Assembly: GCA_963974725.1 (NCBI GenBank)
Contig: CAXBFC010000002.1
Coordinates: forward strand, 1 to 54,595
Source of the DNA: an uncultured bacterium
Lineage (GTDB): Bacteria; Planctomycetota; UBA1135; UBA2386
DNA: 54,595 bases
Direction of reading: 5' to 3'
In this document: positions 28,532 through 54,595 of the stretch, one piece after another
Layout: each line of letters opens with the position of its first letter
Position numbering within the stretch: position 1 is the first letter of the stretch
Made by a program: the position numbers and the translations under genes
The notes under the pieces: generated by a model
Databases searched by the model: none
What the model saw: the letters and a program-made list of their open reading frames with translations, nothing else
Told to the model about the DNA's origin: nothing

Positions 28532-29458
28532 ATGAAGACACTGATTTGTGTTGGGTCCCTGCTGATTGCCGCCGTCGCCACGACGACGCCGATCCCGCAG
28601 GGCGTCGAGCAAGACATCGTTTGGGAAACGTCATTCGCCGATGCCAAGGCGCGGGCGCACGACGAGGGCAAGGGCATCTTCCACCTGCAGCTGTTCGGTC
28701 ACTTGGACCAAGAACTCTGTTGAACGAACGCCCGAACCCTGAGAGCCGTGCTGCTCTCGGATCCGGCGATCGAAAAGCTGCTGCGAGAAGACTTCGTGCC
28801 TGCTTGGGAGTCGGTGCACGAAACGGCGCAAGTAACGATCGACTTCGCCGACGGCAAATCCCTCAAGCGCACGATCGGTGGCAACACGGTGATCTACCTG
28901 TGCCGAGCAGACGGCGCGGTCATCGATGCCTTCCCCGGCATCTACACGAAGCAAGACTTCCTGGCCGAAGCCAAGAGCGCCATCGACATGCTGCAGTCCG
29001 GCCTCGCGTATGCGACGGATCACCGCATCGCCCGCATCCATGCGGACAAGGCGCGATATCTCTTGCCGAACGCAGTCACTTCGATAACGAAGTCGGTCTT
29101 GGAGAGCCCCGTTCTGCTGAAGACGAACGTGCTTGGCGGACACGCCCCTCTGCGTGACCTCAGCAAAGAGCCTCGTCCCGCTCAGGGGGCGCAATGGATT
29201 TCGAGGCCCAAAGTGAACGTCCGCAAGCAATCGCCCAAGCAGTTTGGCGAAACGCTGATCCAATCTGACTCAGCGAACAACCGCGTCACCGTGCGACCGC
29301 GGATTCACTTGATGCTGTCAAAGTTGACGGCGACGGCAACTCCAAGCGAATGCAAGGTTCCGATCTACGAAGGCATTCTCGGCACGAAGCTCGATGACCC
29401 CTACCTGGGTTTGACCGCAGCAGAGTTGCCTGGCACGCGCGGTTTGATCACACGGTAG
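28532..29458 (+). CDS. secreted thioredoxin-fold protein with in-frame TGA at codon 64 (candidate selenocysteine)
   Basis: ORFs 28532-28723 and 28748-29458 are in the same frame and are separated only by the TGA at 28721-28723. The read-through product is ...GKGIFHLQLFGHLDQELC-U-TNARTLRAVLLSDPAIEKLLREDFVPAW..., a thioredoxin-like beta1/alpha1/beta2 layout with a signal peptide at the N-terminus. Confidence 0.6.
28739..28760 (+). promoter_or_regulatory. SECIS-like hairpin downstream of TGA 28721
   Basis: CUGAGAGC (28739-28746) pairs with GCUCUCGG (28753-28760), including one U-G pair. The 6-nt loop CGUGCU contains GU. The stem starts 15 nt after the UGA. Confidence 0.5.
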
Positions 29459-29464
29459 GACCCG

Positions 29465-30532
29465 CTAGGCAGGCGTGCCGCCAAGCAAGCGTTCTGCCAC
29501 AGCGGGGCAATCCGACGCGCTTCGCGCATGGCCATCGGCACCAACGACCTGCCACAAATCATCGACCAGATTGAATGGTTGGCCACCGACGAGAATCGGA
29601 ATCGCCGCCGTCGCTGGGTGGGCTCGCAGCGAGGCAATCAGGTCCGCCGTTTGGCGCACGTAGAGCACGATGTTCGCAGACAGCGCGATCACGTCGCACC
29701 CAAAGTCGCGAGCTGCTTCTGCGATCGCCGTGGCAGGTGTGTTGGCGCCGAGCGAAATGACGGACCAGCCTCGCGCTTCAAAAGCCTGCGACACCAACTG
29801 GATGCCGAGAGCGTGCGTCTCGTTGCTAACGGTTGCCGTGATGACCTGGCGGCCATTGCCTTCCGTTCGCGGCGCCTGCGCACGCATCACGGTCAGAAGA
29901 GACGTGACAATGCCCGTGCAGTAGTGCTCTTCCGCGATGGTGACCTCACCCATCTGCCACATGCGCCCCATCTCTTTCTGCACACGATGCAACACGTGCT
30001 CGTAGAGCTCGGTGGGCGTGGCGCCCGCTTCGAATGCCGCGAGCACCAACTTCACAGCGTCTTGCTCGCGTCCTTCCAATACCGCGAGCAAGAACTGACG
30101 GGCCAGGCCGATGTGCGGCCCATCACCTTCGAGATAGCTAGCGGTCTCGGGCGGCGCTTCGGCAACTTGCTTGGCGGCTAATCGCACCATGGCACAAGCA
30201 CGAGCGGCGGCAGCTTCCGGCAGGCGCTCCTGCAGTTCGTCCGCCATGCACGCGAGGTTGTCCTGGATCGCGTCATCCCCAACTCCACGCGCGGCGCACA
30301 GCACCTTGACCCAACGCAGTTGCTCGGTGAGCAAGGCGATGCGATCGGCAGCCAGCGCTTCGGCCAGGTAGCCGAGCCGAACCTCGGTATCCATCACGAG
30401 ATCGGACTCGCCGGACCCGTAGGCGCGGACGGCTTCCGGATCCCGCGCCAACTGCCGTTCGACGGTGCCGCTAGCTAGAACCCTGGCCGAACGACAGATT
30501 ATGGCAGCGACGAATGATCCCTCTTCATGCAT
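29465..30532 (-). CDS. CarH-like cobalamin (B12)-binding sensor module without a DNA-binding domain
   Basis: MWQMGEVTIAEEH matches the Wx9EH signature of the CarH/LitR four-helix-bundle light-sensing domain. VITATVSNETHALGIQL is the (D/E)xHxxG lower-ligand loop, followed by a Rossmann B12-binding domain (CDVIALSANI, ILVGGQPF). The N-terminal roughly 135 aa are helical and have no MerR HTH. Confidence 0.75.
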   Translation of the reverse strand: MHEEGSFVAAIICRSARVLASGTVERQLARDPEAVRAYGSGESDLVMDTEVRLGYLAEALAADRIALLTEQLRWVKVLCAARGVGDDAIQDNLACMADELQERLPEAAAARACAMVRLAAKQVAEAPPETASYLEGDGPHIGLARQFLLAVLEGREQDAVKLVLAAFEAGATPTELYEHVLHRVQKEMGRMWQMGEVTIAEEHYCTGIVTSLLTVMRAQAPRTEGNGRQVITATVSNETHALGIQLVSQAFEARGWSVISLGANTPATAIAEAARDFGCDVIALSANIVLYVRQTADLIASLRAHPATAAIPILVGGQPFNLVDDLWQVVGADGHARSASDCPAVAERLLGGTPA

Positions 30533-30540
30533 GGGTTTTC

Positions 30541-31326
30541 CTACAGCGGCTTGGCTAACACGACGATCTGCTCGCGATCGGAAACGACCACTCCGCCGGG
30601 GGCTTCGACCGTCACCACAAACGCCTGTGCCTCGTGAACCACAACCTTGGGATCGATTGGGATGACCACCTCGGCCTGGCCGTTGGGCACGTTGAAGACG
30701 CCACCGTCGACAGGGTGCGCCGCGTTACGCTTCGCGTCGACGATCCAAAGTTGGTATTGATGCTGCGACGGGTCGTTGACCGGCAACCCACGAAAGCGCA
30801 TCGCGCCGCGCTGCGAAGGCCCGTGCCAAACCACGTCTCCTTCGGGTGCCCCTCCGGACCAACTCCAAACTGCGGCGTCACGCACTTGCAGCAACTCCTG
30901 CCGCAGCGCCTGCGGAGCGACCACTGATTGCGACGGAACGTTCGTCCACCACAGCACGGCCGACAACGTCAGCAGTGCGGCAGCAAGGATTGCGTTGGGC
31001 TGTGCCCACCACTTGGCCACACCCTCGACAAGCGGCGACGACGCCGAAGACGATGCCAACGATGGTCCCGACGATCGTTCCGACATAGGTCCCGACAATG
31101 GCGCCGCATCTCGCAAGGCGCGGAGCAAGCGCTCCGAGGGCCCACTAGGAATGGCCTGTTGCAACGCGATCGTGGCCACGGCCGCACTGTGTTCCCAACT
31201 GCTGTCTGGTTCGAGTTTCGCTTCGCAAAGTGCGTCCACTAGCTCTAGGCGAGCATTCTCGTCGAGACCCCAAATCGCATCGTCGGCCTGGAGTTCGTCC
31301 AGGCGCGTCATCGAAAAGGCACTCAT
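30541..31326 (-). CDS. anti-sigma factor, RskA-like (single TM, periplasmic RskA domain)
   Basis: The ATG overlaps the sigma stop (ATGA). The TM segment is ILAAALLTLSAVLWW. The C-terminal RskA block is HQYQLWIVDAKRNAAHPVDGGVF...FVVTVEAPGGV. There is no HxxxCxxC zinc motif in the N-terminal domain. Confidence 0.8.
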   Translation of the reverse strand: MSAFSMTRLDELQADDAIWGLDENARLELVDALCEAKLEPDSSWEHSAAVATIALQQAIPSGPSERLLRALRDAAPLSGPMSERSSGPSLASSSASSPLVEGVAKWWAQPNAILAAALLTLSAVLWWTNVPSQSVVAPQALRQELLQVRDAAVWSWSGGAPEGDVVWHGPSQRGAMRFRGLPVNDPSQHQYQLWIVDAKRNAAHPVDGGVFNVPNGQAEVVIPIDPKVVVHEAQAFVVTVEAPGGVVVSDREQIVVLAKPL

Positions 31327-31937
31327 GAGTCGACTCCCTGATCAGGAGTTCGCCGATCGGAGGATCGCCGCTCGGGGGAAGAGTGATCGGGAGATTCCGA
31401 AGTCTTGACTCCAAGTAGTTCACGCACGCGCATCAAGCCTCGTCGCGCATGGCTCTTGACCGTGCCCAAGGCCATCCCAGTCGAGTCGGAAATCTGCTGG
31501 TGAGAGCGCCCGTGGACCAGGGACAGCTCCAAGACTTCGCGTTGACTGGGCCGCAGCTCCTGCATCGCCCCAGACACCCGACGCACTTCGTCATCAAGCT
31601 CGAGCGTATCTGCCTGGGTTGCACCGACCAATTCCTGGTCATCTGTCAGTGACTGGGACGTGGGTGCCCGGCCACGCTTGCGATTGCGGTCGATCAAGCG
31701 CCGACGTGCCAGAGTCATGACGAACGTCATTGCCGAACCACGCTCGGGATCGAACCGATGCGCACTCTTCCAGAGGTCGACAAAAATGTCCTGTGTCGCG
31801 TCTTCGGCGTCGCTGTCGTTGCTCAGGTACCGTCGCGCCAAACTCCACACCGGCGGAGTAAACTGGCGCATGCAAGCTTCCACGGCCTCCGGCTTGCCCG
31901 CTGCTACGTCTGCCAGGATCTGGTCGGTTGCACTCAT
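31323..31937 (-). CDS. ECF-type RNA polymerase sigma-70 family factor
   Basis: Starts at ATG 31937 (MSATDQILADVAAG). Region 2 is EDATQDIFVDLWKSAHRFD. Region 4 is SQREVLELSLVHGRSHQQISDSTGMALGTVKSHARRGL. A short Ser/Pro/Arg-rich C-terminal tail follows. Confidence 0.9.
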   Translation of the reverse strand: MSATDQILADVAAGKPEAVEACMRQFTPPVWSLARRYLSNDSDAEDATQDIFVDLWKSAHRFDPERGSAMTFVMTLARRRLIDRNRKRGRAPTSQSLTDDQELVGATQADTLELDDEVRRVSGAMQELRPSQREVLELSLVHGRSHQQISDSTGMALGTVKSHARRGLMRVRELLGVKTSESPDHSSPERRSSDRRTPDQGVDS

Positions 31938-32033
31938 CTTCCGTTGTTGCGAACAATAATACGCGACTCGCCTGGACAAAGACGAGGATCGGTCGGCACC
32001 AACTATGACACAAGTAGCCATGGTGGTAACCGC

Positions 32034-39373: not shown

Positions 39374-39547
39374 GGTATTGTCGGGGCGCCTTGCGCCGTG
39401 CCTGGATGAGAGTGGTGGTACGGGCCTCGCGACCGCGCGACAGGCCTTCGCCAGATCGTAGGCTCCAGATGCAAGATCTTGTGGCCAATCACCTGCGCTG
39501 CGGCGGATGTTCGCATCCGAATCGCCGAACCGTGCGAAATCCCGGGT

Positions 39548-40087
39548 ATGCCAGTGATCGATTCCCAAGCTTGGACCGCCGACAACCTCAATGGCCGTCG
39601 CCTGGCGGCCCGCAACTTCTCAGACGTCGTCGGCAAAAAACCGACACTGCTGATCTTCTTGCGGCACCTGGGTTGAATCTTCACCCGAGAACTCGTGCAC
39701 GAGGTCGTGCACGCCACCCAGAGCCCCAACTTCCCCGAACCGCTGTTCATCCATCGCGCGTCCGTGGCAGAGGCCGAGATCTTCTTTGCGAAACGATTCG
39801 CGGGCGCTCGCGCGATCGCCGATGCCAACGGATCCTTGTTCGAGGCGTTCGGCCTCAACCGCGGCACTATCCTGCAGCTACTCGGACCGCGAGCACTCTG
39901 GCGTGGCCTGGTTGCACTACTGAAAGGCAACTTCGTTGGGCGACCGACTGGCAATGAGACGCAGATGCCCGGCGCCTTCCTGACGCGCGAGCGCGATATT
40001 CTATGGGAACATCGTGCACGGCACGCGGGCGACCAGCCAGATCTCGACGCGATGATGAAGTCCTTGGACGCTGCATCCGAAGCGTAG
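39548..40087 (+). CDS. Prx-like2 (AhpC/TSA_2) family peroxiredoxin-like protein with in-frame TGA at codon 43 (candidate selenocysteine)
   Basis: ORFs 39479-39676 and 39695-40087 share a frame and are separated only by the TGA at 39674-39676. The read-through gives KPTLLIFLRHLG-U-IFTRELV, which superimposes on the family motif FLRHxGCxFCRE with U at the first Cys. ATG 39548 gives a typical 179-aa length. Confidence 0.7.
39694..39713 (+). promoter_or_regulatory. SECIS-like hairpin downstream of TGA 39674
   Basis: CGUGCAC (39694-39700) pairs with GUGCACG (39707-39713). The loop GAGGUC contains GGU. The stem starts 17 nt after the UGA. Confidence 0.5.
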
Positions 40088-40092
40088 CTCGG

Positions 40093-41355
40093 CTAGTGGC
40101 GGGCCCGCTCGAAACGCAGGTGACAAACGCCAATGTGCCGCTCCAAGAAGCCGGCTTCGCAGTAGGCGAAGTAGAAGTCCCAAGCGCGCATCAGCGAGTC
40201 GTCTCCGCCCAGGGCAACCACCTGCTGACGTTTGGTCAGCCAAACCTGCCGCCACCGCCTGAGGGTTTCCGCGTAGTGATGGCCGAAGTCGACCATCTTC
40301 ACCAAGCGCAGATCCGTGTGCTCACTTGCAGCCCGAGCGATCGCGGTGACCGAAGGGATGAAGCTGCCCGGAAACACGTGGCGTTTGATGTAGTCGACCG
40401 AACGCAGCGCCGACTCATAGTGTTGGTCCGCGATCGTGATTGCCTGTAAGCCGAGGATGCCGCCTGGCTTCAATCGCGCAGCGCAGCACTTGAGGAAGTC
40501 GGGCAGGTAGCGGGCGCCAACGGCCTCGATCATCTCGCACGAGATGACCTTGTCGAAGGTGCCCTCGACATCGCGATAGTCCTGCTGCAATAGCTTGACG
40601 CGATGGCCAAGGCTCGCAGCCTGCACCCGTTCTGATGCCGTCTGGAATTGATTGGAGGAGATCGTCGTCGTGGTGACGTTCGCACCAAACGTGCCTGCTG
40701 CGGCAATCGCAAGGCTGCCCCAGCCAGTGCCGATCTCAAGCAGGTCCTCCCCCGGCGACAAGTCGACCAAGCGACACAATCGCTTCAGCTTCTCGGCCTG
40801 CGCATCCGCCAGACTTTGATTCGGGAACTCGAACCACGCGGAGGAATACGTCATCGACGGATCCAAGAACTGCGCGAACAAGTCGTCACTCAGATCGTAG
40901 TGATCGGCGATGTTCTTCCGGCTACCCTCGCGACTGTTTTGCCTGCGGTTGTAGCCAAGGCGCAGCAACAGCCGCCGCGGCAGCGACCACAGCGAACGAT
41001 CAACATCCATCAAGACATCGCGATCGCGCACCATCAAACGCAGCACGCCAACCAGATCGTCGGTGTCCCATTTGCCAGCGACGTAAGCCTCGCCGGCACC
41101 GACCGCGCCCGAAGCCGCGATCGCACTGTAGAACGCTGGATCGCGAACATCGATCTGTTGCACGCCAAGGGCGCCGCTGGCCGCGCCGACCTTTTCGATA
41201 CCCGAGTAGTCACTGACGGCAAGCGCACCGCTCTGCAACCCGGCTAGCCTTTTGAGAACTCGCGCGCGCAAGAACTTCTGCCAACCAGTAGCAGGTCGCG
41301 CCACCGCCCGCACCGGTGAGCCACTGCGAGGGGAAACAAGGATAGGGTTGCTCAT
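40093..41355 (-). CDS. cyclopropane-fatty-acyl-phospholipid synthase family SAM methyltransferase
   Basis: The start ATG 41355 overlaps the DUF1365 stop. The blocks are HYDLSDDLFAQFLDPSMTYSSAWF, the SAM motif LLEIGTGWGSLAIAAA, and YAETLRRWR. Confidence 0.85.
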   Translation of the reverse strand: MSNPILVSPRSGSPVRAVARPATGWQKFLRARVLKRLAGLQSGALAVSDYSGIEKVGAASGALGVQQIDVRDPAFYSAIAASGAVGAGEAYVAGKWDTDDLVGVLRLMVRDRDVLMDVDRSLWSLPRRLLLRLGYNRRQNSREGSRKNIADHYDLSDDLFAQFLDPSMTYSSAWFEFPNQSLADAQAEKLKRLCRLVDLSPGEDLLEIGTGWGSLAIAAAGTFGANVTTTTISSNQFQTASERVQAASLGHRVKLLQQDYRDVEGTFDKVISCEMIEAVGARYLPDFLKCCAARLKPGGILGLQAITIADQHYESALRSVDYIKRHVFPGSFIPSVTAIARAASEHTDLRLVKMVDFGHHYAETLRRWRQVWLTKRQQVVALGGDDSLMRAWDFYFAYCEAGFLERHIGVCHLRFERARH

Positions 41356-42134
41356 GTCGGAATTCGGCGACGTGGGTGAGAGAAGAACGGCGCACGGCGC
41401 AACCAAAGACGTAGCGCTTGCCAATGGATCGATGCGACGAACTGCATGCTGATCAAGGGATGCCGCAGCCAACTGCGAACCAGGGTTCGGGTTCGCCACG
41501 GCTGCTTGCTCATCACCAGCGTCGCATCAAACGCTTTGCCATCGCCGGCGTGGTTCTCCATGTGCACCAGCAACCGATTGCCGGGCGTTGAGAATCGCCA
41601 GATGTAGTCCTGCTCCATCGGCTGGAACGGACTGACGTGGAAGTCCTTGGCAAACCGAGCCGTGACCCGCCCGCGTTCGTCGGCCCGAAGCACGTAATGA
41701 TGCCGTTCGCGCCACGGCGTGTTGGTGATCTCCGCGAGCACCGCGACGAGCTGATCTTGGCCGTCAAAACAGTAGTAGAACGACACCGGGTTGAAGCCAT
41801 AGCCAAAGCAACGCAACGCCGTCAGCAAGCGCACCGCGCCATCGGGGCGAAACCCGAGTTGCTGCTCGACAGCATTGTGGACCGCCTCCCGCAACGGCGT
41901 GTCCTTGGGGCCGAAGTAGTCCGAACGACGAAACCTGACCGGTGCCGGGCGACGATCAGACCAGAACCACCGGCCCCGAAACGCTTGCTCGATCTCATCG
42001 ATATCGAGGTATGCGAGGTCGAGGTTGACGGTGAACGCACGGTCCACGGCATCAAAGCGACGATGCCGGACCGTGCCGCGGTAGATCCCGCTGTGGACCA
42101 CGCCGCTGCCGTTCGCAACGCCGCTAGCACTCAC
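41352..42134 (-). CDS. DUF1365 family protein
   Basis: The GTG at 42134 overlaps the stop of the upstream flavoprotein (GTGA). The blocks are GIYRGTVRHRRF...FTVNLDLAYLDIDE...RRSDYFGP. Confidence 0.8.
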   Translation of the reverse strand: MSASGVANGSGVVHSGIYRGTVRHRRFDAVDRAFTVNLDLAYLDIDEIEQAFRGRWFWSDRRPAPVRFRRSDYFGPKDTPLREAVHNAVEQQLGFRPDGAVRLLTALRCFGYGFNPVSFYYCFDGQDQLVAVLAEITNTPWRERHHYVLRADERGRVTARFAKDFHVSPFQPMEQDYIWRFSTPGNRLLVHMENHAGDGKAFDATLVMSKQPWRTRTLVRSWLRHPLISMQFVASIHWQALRLWLRRAPFFSHPRRRIPT

Positions 42135-43453
42135 AACGCCACTCCAAACGATGGTTTCGACACTCGTGACGCAACGCCAAGCCCATTGTCGATGCCGAAG
42201 TCGTTCGCGACGCGCAGCGCCGATTGCACGCCGTCTTCGTGGAAGCCAAAGCCACACCAGGCGCCACAGAACCAAACCCTGCCGGTGCCGCTCAATTCGG
42301 CAACCTGTGCCTGCGCTTGCACACAGCGCTCATCGAAAACTGGATGATCGTAAGAAAACCGCCGCAGCACCTTCGCAGGGTCGATCCTCGCCGAACTGTT
42401 CAAGCTCACGAGGTAGCGCTCCACTGTCTCGAGCCCCTGCAGCGTGTTCATGTCATACGTCACTGTGGCATGCTCGCTTGGACTGGCGGGCAAGCGATAA
42501 TTCCACGCCGACCAGGTCTTCCGACGGTTCGGCAGCAGACTGGTGTCGGTGTGCAGCACCACGTCGTTGGCTTGGTACGGGATCGCCGTCAGAACCGCAC
42601 GTTCGGCGTCCGAAGAATCGACCAACATTCGGGCCGCTTGGTCGCTATGGGTCGCCAACACCACGCCATCGAACACTTCCGGCTCACCGCCCTTAGTACG
42701 CACGGTGACCCCAGCCGCCTGGCGGCGGATCTCCACCACCGACGCGTTGAGCCGAATGCGATCCGAGAACGTGCGCGAAAGCGGGCCCAAGTAGCTTCGA
42801 GAGCCACCGACCACGGTGCGCCACTGCGGTCGGTTCTTCACCTGCAGCATGCCGTGATTGCGGAAGAACCGGATGAAGAACCGCGCCGGCATGGAGGACA
42901 AGACCTCGGGCTTCGCCGACCAGATCGCCGCCATCATCGGCAGCAAATACCAGCGCGCGAACGCACCTTCGAGACGAGCTTCGCGCAGCACTTCGCCGAG
43001 GGTTAGATCGCTGTCGAGATACGACTCCGCGAGGCGATGAAAGCGCGTGATGCCATGCAACATCGACCAGAACTTCGGGCGCAGTAGGTTGCGACGCTGC
43101 GCGAACAAGCCATCCACAGAGGAACCGCAGTATTCGACTCCTGAAGCCTCGCAGTGCATGCTGAAGCTCATGTCCGAATCGCGCAGGCCAACGCCCAACC
43201 GCGACATCAGAGCCAAGAACTCAGGGTAGGTGCGATCGTTGCAAACGATGAAGCCGGTATCCACCGCAACGGTGCCATCGCCTGTCTGGACGTCGACCGT
43301 GTGGGTATGGCCGCCGATTCTTTCATCCGCTTCAAACACGACCACATCGTGCTTGGTGGCCAGGCGCTCGGCGGCCAACAGCCCCGAAATGCCGGTGCCG
43401 ACCACCGCAAGGCGTTTGCGCCCATGCCCGAGCAATGCGGCGGCGCGGGTCAT
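42131..43453 (-). CDS. FAD-dependent oxidoreductase (amine-oxidase / phytoene-desaturase-like)
   Basis: It has the dinucleotide fold RLAVVGTGISGLLAAERL...VVVFEADERIGGHTHT and the C-terminal VWFCGAWCGFGFHEDG. Confidence 0.85.
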   Translation of the reverse strand: MTRAAALLGHGRKRLAVVGTGISGLLAAERLATKHDVVVFEADERIGGHTHTVDVQTGDGTVAVDTGFIVCNDRTYPEFLALMSRLGVGLRDSDMSFSMHCEASGVEYCGSSVDGLFAQRRNLLRPKFWSMLHGITRFHRLAESYLDSDLTLGEVLREARLEGAFARWYLLPMMAAIWSAKPEVLSSMPARFFIRFFRNHGMLQVKNRPQWRTVVGGSRSYLGPLSRTFSDRIRLNASVVEIRRQAAGVTVRTKGGEPEVFDGVVLATHSDQAARMLVDSSDAERAVLTAIPYQANDVVLHTDTSLLPNRRKTWSAWNYRLPASPSEHATVTYDMNTLQGLETVERYLVSLNSSARIDPAKVLRRFSYDHPVFDERCVQAQAQVAELSGTGRVWFCGAWCGFGFHEDGVQSALRVANDFGIDNGLGVASRVSKPSFGVAL

Positions 43454-44379
43454 CTACGAACTCGCTCCGGAAGTGGTCGAATGCCAGACACAAGACCCAC
43501 CAACGACATCGCGCGCAGCACGTAGTAGGTGATATCAATCTGCCACCAGCGGAAACCCTGCTGCACCGAACCGGGATGCCAGTGGTGGTTGTTGTGCCAA
43601 CCCTCGCCGAGCGTCAGGACTGCAAGCCAGAACGAGTTGCGGCTGTGATCCCGGGTCGGCCAATCACGCCGTCCGAACAGATGCGCCAACGTGTTGATCG
43701 ACGCCGTGACGTGGAAGAGCACCGTCGTCGAAATGCAGAAACCCCAAACCACCATCTGCGCCATGCTGGTGCCAAGCTCGGGATAGAATCGCTGCAACGC
43801 CCCGCCTAGCGCTGCTAGCGCAACCAGCAGCACGGCGGGAACGACTCGATCGTGACGATCCAGCCAAACGAGTTCGGGATATTTCGCAAAGTCCCTGACT
43901 TGCGACATGTCGGTCTGCCAGGCGCCGCGAGTCACAAACCAACCGACCTGCGCCCACCAGAAACTGTGCGTGTGCGGCGAATGCCGGTCGCCCTCACCGT
44001 CCGAAGTCCGGTGGTGATTACGATGGTGGGCCGCCCACCATAGTGCGCCTCGCTGCACAGCCGTAGCGCCGAGCAGGGCTCCAAGAAACTGCATCGTCCG
44101 GGACATCGTGTAACTGCGATGGCCGAAGTAGCGATGATAGAACGCCGTCACCGCAAACATCCGGATCAGGTAGAGCGCAACCGCCACCATCACCGCAACC
44201 GGGCTCCAACCCACGACGAAGACCAACAGGCAGCCCGCCTGCATGGCCAGCCACGGCGCAATACGCCGCCACTCGATTTGACGGTCGTCCGATGAGGCGA
44301 CCGGGACCCCGAGAGTGCTAGTTGTCACGTATGAAGCTCCACTTAGGAAAGTTCGCGATTTTAGACCCGCTGGATGCAC
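43450..44379 (-). CDS. membrane fatty-acid (acyl-CoA/acyl-lipid) desaturase
   Basis: It has three His boxes: HRYFGH, HHRNHHRTSD and HNNHHWH. An alternative start is the GTG at 44328, which is preceded by GGAG. Confidence 0.85.
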   Translation of the reverse strand: MHPAGLKSRTFLSGASYVTTSTLGVPVASSDDRQIEWRRIAPWLAMQAGCLLVFVVGWSPVAVMVAVALYLIRMFAVTAFYHRYFGHRSYTMSRTMQFLGALLGATAVQRGALWWAAHHRNHHRTSDGEGDRHSPHTHSFWWAQVGWFVTRGAWQTDMSQVRDFAKYPELVWLDRHDRVVPAVLLVALAALGGALQRFYPELGTSMAQMVVWGFCISTTVLFHVTASINTLAHLFGRRDWPTRDHSRNSFWLAVLTLGEGWHNNHHWHPGSVQQGFRWWQIDITYYVLRAMSLVGLVSGIRPLPERVRR

Positions 44380-44435
44380 AAACTCGCATCCGTTGACTAT
44401 CCCAGGCGAACCCTACACTAGGAAACGTTCCGACA

Positions 44436-45257
44436 ATGAACCTGCTCGAACTTGCTGCGCCCCTGATGCTCTGGGCCTGGTCCACGCTGGCGGCACTCTT
44501 CGCCGTGCTGTGGCTGGTCCAGCTGCGCAGCAAGAAAGCCACCTCGGTCGACCTCGCCTGGGCAGCGTCCATCGGCATGGTCGCTGTGGTCGCCGCGATT
44601 GTAGCAACCGGCAGCGGGCCACAGCGCCTGCTGGCGGCGGTTCTGGCTGGCTCCTGGAGCGCGAGGCTCAGCTGGCACTTGCTGGTCGACCGCGTCCAGA
44701 CCGACAAAGCCGAAGACGGCCGCTATCAAACGCTGCGCCGGCTGCTCGGCAAACGTGAAGCCGTCGGATTCTTCTTCGTCTACCAACTTCAGGCACTACT
44801 GGCCGTCGGCTTGGCGACGCCATTCGTGCTGCTCGCATACTCGTCCGAGCTGACGATCGCGCCGGTGCAATCCGGCGGCGTCGCGCTGGTGATCGTCAGC
44901 CAGCTGTTCGTCGCCACCGCCGACCGACAACGGGCCGAGCACCGGGCCAATCCAAGCATGCGCGGCACGACGTGCCGCAGCGGCCTCTGGCGCTACAGCC
45001 GTCACCCCAACTACTTCTTCGAATGGCTGACTTGGTGTGGGTTCGGCATTGCCCAGCTCCCCGCACTCGGCTGGTTGGCTGCGATTGCACCACTCGCAAT
45101 GTGGCTCTCGATCCGCATCTTCACCGGCGTGCCATTCACGGAAAAGCGTGCGCTGGTTTCGCGCGGTGATGACGGCCGACGCTACATGGCGGAGACCAAC
45201 GAGTTCTTCCCTGGGCCGCCGCCACAAACCCTTCCGACACCCTCCACGCAATCATGA
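44436..45257 (+). CDS. DUF1295 family membrane protein (steroid-5-alpha-reductase / ICMT-like fold)
   Basis: The product is multi-TM and carries the signature GLWRYSRHPNYFFEWLTW. Confidence 0.8.
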   Translation: MNLLELAAPLMLWAWSTLAALFAVLWLVQLRSKKATSVDLAWAASIGMVAVVAAIVATGSGPQRLLAAVLAGSWSARLSWHLLVDRVQTDKAEDGRYQTLRRLLGKREAVGFFFVYQLQALLAVGLATPFVLLAYSSELTIAPVQSGGVALVIVSQLFVATADRQRAEHRANPSMRGTTCRSGLWRYSRHPNYFFEWLTWCGFGIAQLPALGWLAAIAPLAMWLSIRIFTGVPFTEKRALVSRGDDGRRYMAETNEFFPGPPPQTLPTPSTQS

Positions 45258-46321
45258 GTAAAGTGATCGAACGCTGCCTCGAACGCGGCCTTCTCCCGGA
45301 CACCATCGTTCGCGCCGGCATCCGTCGGCTGTTGCGCAAGCGTCTGCGCAGCGAGATGGCTCACGACCCCGAAATCTCTGCGCGCCGACTGAGCGAGTGG
45401 ATTCGCCAGTGTGACACCAGCGTCATCGCCGTGGCGACGGATGCGGCAAACCAGCAGCACTACGAAGTCCCGGCAGCGTTCTTCCAAGCCGTTCTCGGCA
45501 AGTACCGCAAATACAGCTGCGGGCTCTGGAACGCCAAAGCCATGACCCTCGATGACGCGGAAGCGGCCATGCTTGCCAAAACCTGTGAGCGAGCGGGCAT
45601 CGAAGATGGCATGCGCGTCCTGGACCTCGGCTGCGGCTGGGGATCGATGTCGCTGTGGGTCGCGGAGCACTATCCCAACTGTCACGTCGTTGGCGTCAGC
45701 AACTCTGCGAGCCAACGCGAGTCGATCCTTGCGAATGCCAAGGATCGCGGCTTGACCAATGTCGAAATCGTCACCGCCGACGTCAACGAGCTTGAGCTGC
45801 CAGAAGCGAAAGAACAGCCCTTCGATCGCATCGTCTCGATCGAGATGATGGAGCACACGCGCAACTGGCGACAACTACTCGAACGCGCCGCTGGCTGGCT
45901 GCACCCCGATGGCCGGATGTTCGTGCACGTGTTCACTCATCGCTCCGTTGGCTACGAGTTCGTGACGCGCGGTGACGACGACTGGATGGCGCGCCACTTC
46001 TTTACTGGCGGCCAAATGCCAGCGGACTCACAGCTACTTCACTTCCAAGACCACCTGCAGGTTGAGTCGCACTGGCGTGTCAGCGGCCGGCACTACCAAC
46101 GGACGGCCGAGGCGTGGCTGCGCAATCTCGACAAGCACCGCGATGAGGCGACCGCCAGCCTGCGGCGCGTCTACGGCGAAGGCGCCGCCAAGATGACCAA
46201 CCTGTGGCGCGTCTTCTTCATGTCCTGCGCCGAACTGTGGGGCTTTGACAACGGCCGTGAATGGTTGGTGTCCCACTACTTGATGCGACCGCGAACGGGT
46301 GCAAGTCGGGCGAGCAACTAA
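45254..46321 (+). CDS. second CFA-synthase-family SAM methyltransferase
   Basis: It has an ATGA overlap with DUF1295. The blocks are QQHYEVPAAFFQAVLGKYRKYSCGLW, the SAM motif VLDLGCGWGSMSLWVAE, and YQRTAEAW. Confidence 0.85.
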   Translation: MSKVIERCLERGLLPDTIVRAGIRRLLRKRLRSEMAHDPEISARRLSEWIRQCDTSVIAVATDAANQQHYEVPAAFFQAVLGKYRKYSCGLWNAKAMTLDDAEAAMLAKTCERAGIEDGMRVLDLGCGWGSMSLWVAEHYPNCHVVGVSNSASQRESILANAKDRGLTNVEIVTADVNELELPEAKEQPFDRIVSIEMMEHTRNWRQLLERAAGWLHPDGRMFVHVFTHRSVGYEFVTRGDDDWMARHFFTGGQMPADSQLLHFQDHLQVESHWRVSGRHYQRTAEAWLRNLDKHRDEATASLRRVYGEGAAKMTNLWRVFFMSCAELWGFDNGREWLVSHYLMRPRTGASRASN

Positions 46322-52728: not shown

Positions 52729-53502
52729 TCAGCCCGGCTTGTTTTGAGCCTTTCGGCCCTTCGCCGATCGAAGTCGGAAGCTCTCGCCGTTCATCTCAAG
52801 GATGTTGGCTCGATGCGTTACTCGGTCGAGCATCGCGACGGCAAGCCGCTCGGTTTTGAAGACCTGTGCCCATTCACTGAAAGGCAGGTTGCTGTTGACG
52901 ATGACGCTGCCGCGTTCGTGCCTGGCGCTGAAAGCTTGGAAAAGCAACTCAGCGCCTTGCTCCGTGACTGGCAGGTAGCCGAGCTCATCGACGATCAACA
53001 GGTCGATGGTCGCGAGTCGCTTGAGGAAGCGATGCAGCGCGTTCTGTTCCTGCGCGGCTGCGAGTTCGCTGACCAACTCCGTGGCGGTGTAGAAGCGCAC
53101 GCGGCGACTTTGACGGCAGGCTTCAACGCCAAGGCCAATGGAGACGTGCGTCTTACCAGTGCCACTGCTGCCGACGGCGATGATGTTGGCGCCGTCCTTG
53201 ATGTAATCGCCCTTGGCGAGTTCCCACAGTTGCGGCATTGAGATGCCCGACGGTAGAGACGTTTCGTCGAGGTCAGCGAGTTCCTTGATCTGCGGGAAGC
53301 GTGCTTCTTGCAGTCGTCGCTCGATGCGGCGCGTGCATCTGTCATTGACTTCTTCTTCGAGCAAAGCATGAAGGAAGCCCGCGTAGTCGCTGCCGGATTG
53401 CCCGACCTCTTTGGCGATCTTGACGTAGTTCTTCTTGATCGAAGGCAGTCGCAGTTCGCTCAAGAAGAGCTCGATCCGCGCGTCGATGGCAGCCTTAGCC
53501 AC
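52729..53502 (-). CDS. istB: IS21 helper ATPase IstB
   Basis: The GTG at 53502 is preceded by GAGGAGG and overlaps the istA end. Walker A is VGSSGTGKTHVSIGLG, Walker B is LLIVDELGY, and the block ERGSVIVNSNLPFSEW is present. Confidence 0.9.
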   Translation of the reverse strand: MAKAAIDARIELFLSELRLPSIKKNYVKIAKEVGQSGSDYAGFLHALLEEEVNDRCTRRIERRLQEARFPQIKELADLDETSLPSGISMPQLWELAKGDYIKDGANIIAVGSSGTGKTHVSIGLGVEACRQSRRVRFYTATELVSELAAAQEQNALHRFLKRLATIDLLIVDELGYLPVTEQGAELLFQAFSARHERGSVIVNSNLPFSEWAQVFKTERLAVAMLDRVTHRANILEMNGESFRLRSAKGRKAQNKPG

Positions 53503-54595
53503 AGAGCACCTCCTCGTACTGCGATGCCGAGTTTGCTTGCACCGATGGACCGGCATATTCGATCACTCCGACTACTGGTCGTCGCTCCTCTTGGCGACAT
53601 CCCAAGTGGTATCGGATCGTCGGCAACGACACTGGGCCTTCGAGCAATGTTGCTTTGACTGCGCTTGTGGTTGCATCGTTGCCGTAGTGCTCGGTGAGCA
53701 TCAGAGTCGCGACGAATGACTTGGATCCTTCGACCTCCCCTTCTCTTTGACGAAGTGCCGCGAGCAGTTGTGTCCAGCACGTGCCTGCGTTTGCCAGCCA
53801 CTGTTGCACTGGCACCGCGCGATCGAGGCCGCGGTGCTTCCTCTCAAGAAGTGGCAAGTAGTGCACCAATTCGAGCACCATCTTGTCTCGGCCATAGCTG
53901 CGAGCATGCTTCGCGACTTCGACGCGCCCGTAAGTGATCGTGATTGTCTCGGCCGCAATTTTCACCACCACAATGCTGCCCACCAAGCGCACCGGGACGG
54001 AGTAGTAGTTGCGTCCCAATTGCACCCACGAACGATTCGACACGCTCGCGGATCGAGTAGTCGCGGCATCGAAAGCCCGCGTTGGCAGTGGCATCAGATG
54101 CTGCTGCTCAAGGTGCCAGTTCTCACCGATTGTCGCGGTACATCCGGTTACCGTGCGATTCATCTCGGCTGCCGCTAGCGCGTCCAATCGTTCTTGCACG
54201 CCAGCACGGCCATCGACGGTTGGGATCGGTGAAAACACTTCGCTGCGTGTCCACTTGACGTCGTTTTCGACGCCACCCTTTTCGTTGCCTTTGCCTGGGC
54301 TGCAAAACTCAGCCTTGAAGCCGTAGTGCGCCTGGAAGACTTCGAAGCCTCGCTGCACTTCACGGTGGCGTCCACTCAGCACTTTGCGCACGGCTGGCGT
54401 GAGGTTGTCAAACCACATGTGCTCGAACACGCCGCCGAAAAACTCGAAGGCCTGCATCAAGCCTTCGAGCAAGGCTTCGCGCGTCTGGTTTGGCGAAGCG
54501 TAGCGATACGTTCGCCGTGAGTGGCACGCGCGCACGATCAGCACGAACACCTTGATGCGCCCTTCATGGATGTCGTCCACGACGCTCTCCATGAA
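53495..54595 (-). CDS. istA: IS21 transposase IstA, N-terminus outside the window
   Basis: The frame is open to the window edge. The product has the IstA-like DDE/C-terminal region (WFDNLTPAV, FCSPGKGNEKGGVE, YYSVP). Confidence 0.85.
   Translation of the reverse strand, partial: FMESVVDDIHEGRIKVFVLIVRACHSRRTYRYASPNQTREALLEGLMQAFEFFGGVFEHMWFDNLTPAVRKVLSGRHREVQRGFEVFQAHYGFKAEFCSPGKGNEKGGVENDVKWTRSEVFSPIPTVDGRAGVQERLDALAAAEMNRTVTGCTATIGENWHLEQQHLMPLPTRAFDAATTRSASVSNRSWVQLGRNYYSVPVRLVGSIVVVKIAAETITITYGRVEVAKHARSYGRDKMVLELVHYLPLLERKHRGLDRAVPVQQWLANAGTCWTQLLAALRQREGEVEGSKSFVATLMLTEHYGNDATTSAVKATLLEGPVSLPTIRYHLGCRQEERRPVVGVIEYAGPSVQANSASQYEEVLCG

Follow-up and report, generated by a model that had tools for sequence, protein, structure and literature searches.

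Two open reading frames (ORFs) of an uncultured member of the Planctomycetota lie in one frame and are separated by a single TGA, which raises the question of whether they form one selenoprotein gene, encode two separate products or are the remains of an interrupted gene. We addressed this question in the whole stretch of DNA that carries them (54,595 nucleotides, hereafter the window), together with homologous loci from public assemblies.

The ORFs at 39479-39676 and 39695-40087 of the plus strand share a frame, and the TGA at 39674-39676 is their sole separator, as a preliminary description of this DNA had stated and as the sequence bears out. Apart from this TGA, no frame disruption is present between 39479 and 40087. 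Reading through it joins 39548-39673 to 39677-40087 in a single frame of 179 codons, including one in-frame UGA. The junction of the resulting product is KPTLLIFLRHLG-U-IFTRELVHEV, and the protein contains no cysteine at all. The likely start is the ATG at 39548 (MPVIDSQAW), which agrees with the N-termini of orthologs (MAVINQEVW or MAEIDQKVW). We consider it highly probable that 39548-40087 is a genuine selenoprotein gene in which UGA-43 is decoded as selenocysteine (Sec). The relevant features are collected in Table 1; judging from the gene layout, the intergenic region upstream of the gene is presumably its promoter site.

Table 1. Coordinates of the candidate selenoprotein genes and of neighboring features in the window.
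Feature	Positions	Strand	Basis or details
Second candidate selenoprotein gene	28532-29458	+	UGA at 28721-28723 (codon 64); hairpin at 28739-28760
Divergent intergenic region, 174 nt, flanked by the NmrA/DUF2867 gene on the minus strand and by the selenoprotein gene	39374-39547	.	Gene layout
SelL-related (Prx-like2 / AhpC-TSA_2) redox protein, complete CDS	39548-40087	+	Family profiles, ortholog starts, dN/dS
UGA, very probable selenocysteine codon 43, first position of the UxxT motif	39674-39676	+	TGA conservation, Cys alignment
Candidate SECIS hairpin, AGGU apical loop	39694-39713	+	RNAfold, conservation in close relatives
CMAS-family (CFA-synthase-like) methyltransferase	40093-41499	mostly minus-strand cluster	Pfam scan
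DUF1365, UfaO domain	41352-42275	mostly minus-strand cluster	Pfam scan
Flavin amine-oxidase-family gene	42131-43453	mostly minus-strand cluster	Pfam scan
Fatty-acid desaturase	43450-44379	mostly minus-strand cluster	Pfam scan
DUF1295 protein	44436-45257	mostly minus-strand cluster	Pfam scan
Second CMAS-family methyltransferase	45254-46321	mostly minus-strand cluster	Pfam scan

The UGA codon and the redox cysteine of the family

The read-through protein was scanned against family profiles with U entered as C. It matches Pfam AhpC-TSA_2 (PF13911) over residues 73-159 with 32.3 bits (cut-off 27, E = 1.5e-7) and the NCBIfam model NF040769, 'SelL-related redox protein', with 126.7 bits against the curated cut-off of 120. 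The latter match is essentially full length, with residues 14-171 aligned to positions 8-171 of the 173 positions of the profile. Both scores uphold the earlier assignment to the Prx-like2 (AhpC/TSA_2) family. The domain of typical peroxiredoxins (AhpC-TSA, PF00578) gave no match at E <= 0.1 in the read-through protein, for which 'peroxiredoxin' is therefore a loose label; among the homologs, only the distant P0037 carries this domain.

The preliminary description had named FLRHxGCxFCRE as the redox motif of the family and had placed the TGA on its first cysteine, giving a UxxT motif. The named motif is found to the letter in two Cys homologs (P0025 and P0036), and the Cys homologs read FLRHLGCIFCRE or FLRHFGCTFTRQ at this site, the second form being that of P0028, P0031 and P0033. 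The placement is likewise correct: in an alignment of 13 sequences, the UGA shares its column with the first Cys of the CxxC or CxxT motif, which is invariant in the Cys forms. The same correspondence is seen with the only solved structure found by the family profile, PRXL2B (PDB 9us9, E = 2.4e-5), in which LRRFGCVVCR aligns with FLRHLGUIFTR and U falls on the first Cys of CxxC.

An operational criterion for bacterial selenoproteins is an in-frame TGA that aligns with Cys in at least two homologs (PMC1088965, PMC2398784), and such is the case for UGA-43. More specifically, Cys occupies the equivalent site in P0025, P0028, P0031, P0033, P0036 and P0037 as well as in at least 579 loci of a GTDB scan using one genome per species, the pattern of which contained Cys and thus returned Cys forms only. 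Among the best 80 of these at least 579 Cys-form loci, the motif is CxxC in 44 and CxxT in 36. UxxT therefore mirrors a common natural configuration. Within the Sec clade, the residue at +3 is always Thr or Pro and never Cys.

Conservation of the interrupted frame

Thirteen distinct loci (the window, L001, L004, L006, L008, L010 and L012-L018) retain the TGA at protein identities of 46-97%. These loci originate from TARA, JGI, NCBI MAG, ENA and Logan assemblies and include one Anaerolineae contig of 2.7 Mb. All 13 have the same context, namely an in-frame FLRH[LFY]G, then TGA, then [IVL]F[TP]. Because the TGA is common to loci from independent projects, we exclude both an error in sequencing and a nonsense mutation confined to one genome, and the objection that the true codon might be TGC or TGT is countered by the same assemblies. 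Four lineages could be aligned without gaps, and among them dN/dS amounts to 0.27-0.47 upstream of the UGA (42 codons) and 0.14-0.25 downstream of it (125 codons). Values below 0.5 on either side indicate that both halves are translated and constrained. A pseudogene derived from a Cys-form gene by nonsense mutation, or an error of sequencing or assembly, would explain the bare presence of a stop codon and nothing else, and against it stand the identical TGA at loci of such divergence, dN/dS well below 1 on either side and the intactness of the frame elsewhere. The probability that we leave to it is negligible, the 13 loci and the dN/dS values having effectively refuted it.

Protein databases present a different picture of the gene. 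The 24 closest database proteins (46-96% identity) cover the C-terminal 70% or so of the query, or less. Those for which the sequence was inspected (nine, plus one still shorter fragment) start shortly behind the UGA, either with MHEVVHA or slightly beyond it, and the full-length database matches are more distant Cys forms. As the closest entries start after the TGA, gene callers have evidently shortened them, in line with the earlier expectation that the gene would be split, and the Sec clade is consequently invisible in protein databases.

Under the automatic annotation, translation would stop at the TGA to give an N-terminal peptide of 42 residues and would restart at the GTG at 39695 to give a protein of 130 residues. 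Databases indeed hold C-terminal products of 124-195 residues as called genes, and a small upstream ORF is called at most loci, but this split would cut the thioredoxin fold between its first strand and its active-site helix, with loss of the catalytic residue. Moreover, full-length Cys homologs are colinear over the junction, the position of the putative restart codon is not conserved (MHEV, MLRA, MEDV, MDLR), and the frame is retained at 13 of 13 loci. We judge two separate products to be very improbable and retain the single read-through selenoprotein as the preferred reading.

The codon preceding the UGA also distinguishes the Sec forms from the Cys forms. Gly is encoded there by GGU in 10 of 12 Sec forms (39671-39673 in the window) and by GGC in none, a preference observed alongside a GC3 of about 0.77. 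Of 80 Cys-form genes, 47 use GGC and 21 use GGU for the Gly that precedes the Cys codon (Fisher p = 2e-4 versus the Sec forms). This bias may reflect an effect of the 5' context on UGA decoding or the shared ancestry of the Sec clade.

Members of the clade vary in an additional domain. A C-terminal extension of about 60 residues, DUF6435 (PF20027), is found in L001, L004, L016 and L018, and the same domain forms a separate small gene located two genes upstream in L012 (1844-2071) and L014 (270-497). The selenoprotein gene of the window is without it, and a copy elsewhere in the window was not detected.

TGA usage, the downstream hairpin and a second candidate gene

Of the 35 Pfam-supported ORFs of the window, TGA terminates 15, TAG 16 and TAA 4. 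TGA is an ordinary stop codon here and there is no genome-wide recoding, as the preliminary description had argued. ARAGORN detected no tRNA-Sec, and indeed no tRNA whatsoever, in the 54.6-kb window, and SelA, SelB and SelD were not found in a Pfam scan of 41 window ORFs. The named close homologs of both Sec candidates (see below for the second) belong mostly to Planctomycetota MAGs, and Planctomycetes with complete Sec-insertion gene sets have been documented (PMC4807772).

A SECIS-like hairpin had been proposed shortly downstream of the UGA. RNAfold predicts an 8-bp stem (CGUGCACG/CGUGCACG) closed by an AGGU loop, with an energy of -12.7 kcal/mol; the stem begins 17 nt past the UGA and can alternatively be read as a 7-bp stem with a GAGGUC loop. 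The hairpin is kept in L001, L004, L008 and L010, with changes in the stem that consist of the loss of the outermost pair, a G-C to G-U replacement and an A-C mismatch. The best evidence of constraint at the RNA level is the low rate of synonymous change near the UGA. Among codons with an amino acid identical across the window, L001, L004 and L010, 3 of the 12 that fall within the first 13 codons past the UGA vary synonymously, versus 47 of 67 elsewhere (Fisher p = 0.0067). In distant orthologs, hairpins are found at about the same place, with a shifted register and G-rich loops (UGGAU in L013 and L015, GGUC in L017 and CUGGACGA in L006), whereas the folds of L012, L014, L016 and L018 are ambiguous.

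Statistical comparisons do not set this hairpin apart. The 73-nt fold has a z-score of -1.8 against dinucleotide shuffles, and shuffling of synonymous codons reveals no excess hairpin stability over 12 orthologs (mean z = -0.1). Pairing in a fixed register across the clade reaches 55% versus 47.5% for shuffles, a value that is equaled by sliding the register by +2. The best hairpin with a G-containing loop averages -9.9 kcal/mol in the Sec forms against -7.6 kcal/mol in the same region of the Cys forms (p = 0.037); with GC-matched Cys-form controls (-8.8 kcal/mol) the difference is not significant (p = 0.2). Applied to 12 Sec-form sequences, RNAalifold found no covariation and no common hairpin except a mini-hairpin of 5 bp in which the UGA itself takes part. 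Nearly all 12 Sec forms have this mini-hairpin (39671-39686, GG-UGA / UCA-CC, loop AUCU) unchanged, an invariance for which the conserved amino acids G-U-I-F-T account in full. Rfam detected no SECIS family in the whole window at the gathering threshold, and around both UGAs only chance matches at E <= 10. Since the statistical tests do not single it out, we rate the hairpin as compatible with a SECIS element. It exists at the distance given in the earlier proposal, is kept in close relatives and is locally constrained, but the evidence is weaker than that proposal assumed: the hairpin is not significant against synonymous shuffles or Cys-form controls, and its role as SECIS is thus not independently demonstrated.

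A scan of the window for in-frame TGAs flanked by coding-like sequence returned one other credible case, the second candidate gene of Table 1. Its product has a signal peptide ahead of GKGIFHLQLFGHLDQELC-U-TNARTLRAVLLSDP, with the motif LC-U-TNARTLRA, and combines a thioredoxin-fold domain with a helical C-terminal domain. Close homologs are likewise shortened after the TGA, and full-length homologs read MPCANARTLRA or YSCANSRFFR, an invariant Cys being aligned with U. The orthologous loci L099 and L100 retain the TGA. An 8-bp hairpin (CUGAGAGC-CGUGCU-GCUCUCGG) starts 15 nt past this UGA, and the hairpin of L100 differs from it by one compensatory change from G-C to A-U and one change from U-G to U-A. 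The protein has no Pfam or NCBIfam match, so that none of the model identifiers of the 2026 selenoproteome catalogue matched it, and it may represent an uncatalogued selenoprotein family.

The second Cys-aligned TGA and its covarying hairpin argue that the organism decodes Sec; without such decoding, it is difficult to account for a single contig that carries two UGAs, each aligned with Cys and followed by a hairpin. Read-through of UGA-43 by near-cognate insertion of Trp or Cys, or by a suppressor tRNA, could also yield a full-length protein, in this case free of selenium, and would fit both a window in which no Sec machinery was found and a statistically unremarkable hairpin. Generic read-through, however, is not expected to place the UGA exactly on the invariant redox Cys, a position that is the signature of Sec/Cys exchange. 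Purifying selection on the gene is also at odds with Trp or Gly at this site, either of which would abolish the redox function. The second gene with a Cys-aligned UGA and a hairpin and the regular termination of 15 of 35 other genes at TGA speak against it as well. Selenium-free read-through is accordingly rated as very improbable.

Directly downstream of the second candidate gene, three genes are grouped on the minus strand (29465-32021). They encode a protein with a B12-binding domain (29465-30532), an RskA-type anti-sigma factor (30541-31326) and an ECF sigma factor (31323-32021). In L099, the B12-binding protein and the ECF sigma factor are also present, and an unannotated gene occupies the position of the anti-sigma factor. 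A regulatory module that responds to light or stress is one possible interpretation of this group.

Known relatives, gene neighborhood and proposed function

The Cys forms of NF040769, such as P0025 from Leptospira fainei, are colinear with the read-through protein over residues 14-171, are of similar length and share FLRHxG[C/U]xF[C/T]RE. The difference is that Sec here replaces the first Cys, the named members encountered being Cys proteins.

PRXL2B is the prostamide/prostaglandin F synthase and constitutes, with PRXL2A and PRXL2C, the eukaryotic Prx-like2 / SelU group; its activity is endoperoxide reducing and thioredoxin dependent. It is distant in sequence from the window's protein, has a CxxC motif and is eukaryotic, so its activity is not confidently transferable.

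SelL is a selenoprotein of aquatic animals and marine bacteria in which the two Sec residues of a UxxU motif form a diselenide. It has been described as a Prx-like protein (PMC2398784). The protein studied here resembles SelL in its superfamily, in having Sec at the CxxC-equivalent motif, in its marine occurrence and in the location of the bacterial (here candidate) SECIS inside the coding region. It differs in having one Sec (U-I-F-T) instead of two. With one Sec and a Thr at +3, an intramolecular diselenide is impossible, and because the gene has a single in-frame TGA in place of the two that UxxU demands, we refer to the protein as SelL-related and not as SelL sensu stricto.

The catalogues of prokaryotic selenoproteomes published in 2022 and 2026 include an 'AhpC/TSA family protein, pfam13911 / cd02970, UxxS', and this selenoprotein family was first found in metagenomes of Olavius symbionts (PMC9312934, PMC13188914). 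The catalogued family and the present one are alike in their Pfam domain, bacterial origin, single Sec and hydroxyl residue at +3; by catalogue description, on which alone they were compared, they differ in UxxS versus UxxT. NF040769 is absent among the catalogue identifiers. The UxxT clade, set against the catalogue by identifiers only, may therefore be an unlisted subfamily.

The UxxT motif itself is that of glutathione peroxidase (PMC13188914). The two proteins have in common a single Sec, a Thr at +3, a thioredoxin fold and (as proposed here) regeneration by an external thiol. Glutathione peroxidase belongs to another family (PF00255), to which this analysis detected no sequence similarity, and the analogy is one of mechanism only. 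By this analogy, the protein may apply the UxxT logic of glutathione peroxidase on a Prx-like2 scaffold. More broadly, thioredoxin-fold and Prx-like proteins in which Sec replaces a redox Cys rank with the most abundant families of marine selenoproteomes, most families of which have a thioredoxin-like fold or thiol-oxidoreductase homologs (PMC1088965, PMC2398784).

We infer the following mode of action. UGA-43 would be decoded by the SelB/tRNA-Sec system, probably aided by the hairpin that begins 17 nt downstream. Sec would take the nucleophilic first position of the CxxC/CxxT motif in a thioredoxin fold. As the protein has Thr at +3 and no Cys, it lacks an internal resolving residue, which points to a single-selenol enzyme. 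Catalysis would begin with attack of the selenolate on a peroxide or a disulfide-type substrate, resulting in a selenenic acid or a selenenylsulfide, and an external thiol (thioredoxin or a low-molecular-weight thiol) would then regenerate the selenol. The protein is thus a putative single-Sec, thiol-dependent (lipid) peroxide reductase.

The selenoprotein gene adjoins a cluster of fatty-acid-modifying genes (40093-46321) on one side and the NmrA/DUF2867 gene on the other. We tentatively take the flavin amine-oxidase-family gene of the cluster to be UfaD-like, a term not found in PMC7380195. The cluster resembles the furan-fatty-acid pathway of Rhodobacter, whose genes have been described in an operon context and for which the reductant of UfaO is reported as unknown (PMC7380195). 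The arrangement recurs in L001, L004 and L010, which are close relatives with neighboring genes about 80% identical, and in only 1-2 of 80 Cys-form loci. Synteny so limited is weak functional evidence and is therefore treated as a lead.

The neighboring genes suggest a context of lipid oxidation for the selenoprotein, and a lipid or endoperoxide-type substrate is suggested solely by these genes and by the relationship to PRXL2B. A closer partnership can be envisaged, in which the SelL-related selenoprotein would be dedicated to the furan-fatty-acid-like gene set as a reductase of membrane-lipid (endo)peroxides or as the reductant of UfaO; we regard such a partnership as unlikely.

At its far end, the window contains an IS21-type element on the minus strand (52729-54592). 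It comprises an IstB-like ATPase gene (52729-53556) and an integrase gene of the rve/Mu-transposase-C type (53495-54592), the latter reaching the window edge.

Bacterial selenoproteins of PF13911 and SelL are already known (PMC9312934, PMC13188914, PMC2398784), and the present analysis corrects an annotation without introducing a new mechanism. The main practical value is the correction of a systematic mis-annotation, since callers split the gene in every database entry examined and the deposited sequences are without the active site. The main lead is the second candidate gene. For the biology of the family, a UxxT, Cys-free form is added to the SelL-related / Prx-like2 selenoproteins, and this form recurs in marine Planctomycetota and in an Anaerolineae genome. 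The two Sec candidates on the contig mark the lineage as a selenium user. Were the partnership with the fatty-acid-modifying genes to be true, the SelL-related protein, together with the secreted thioredoxin-fold candidate, would represent a selenium-dependent defence against photo-oxidative stress in marine Planctomycetota.
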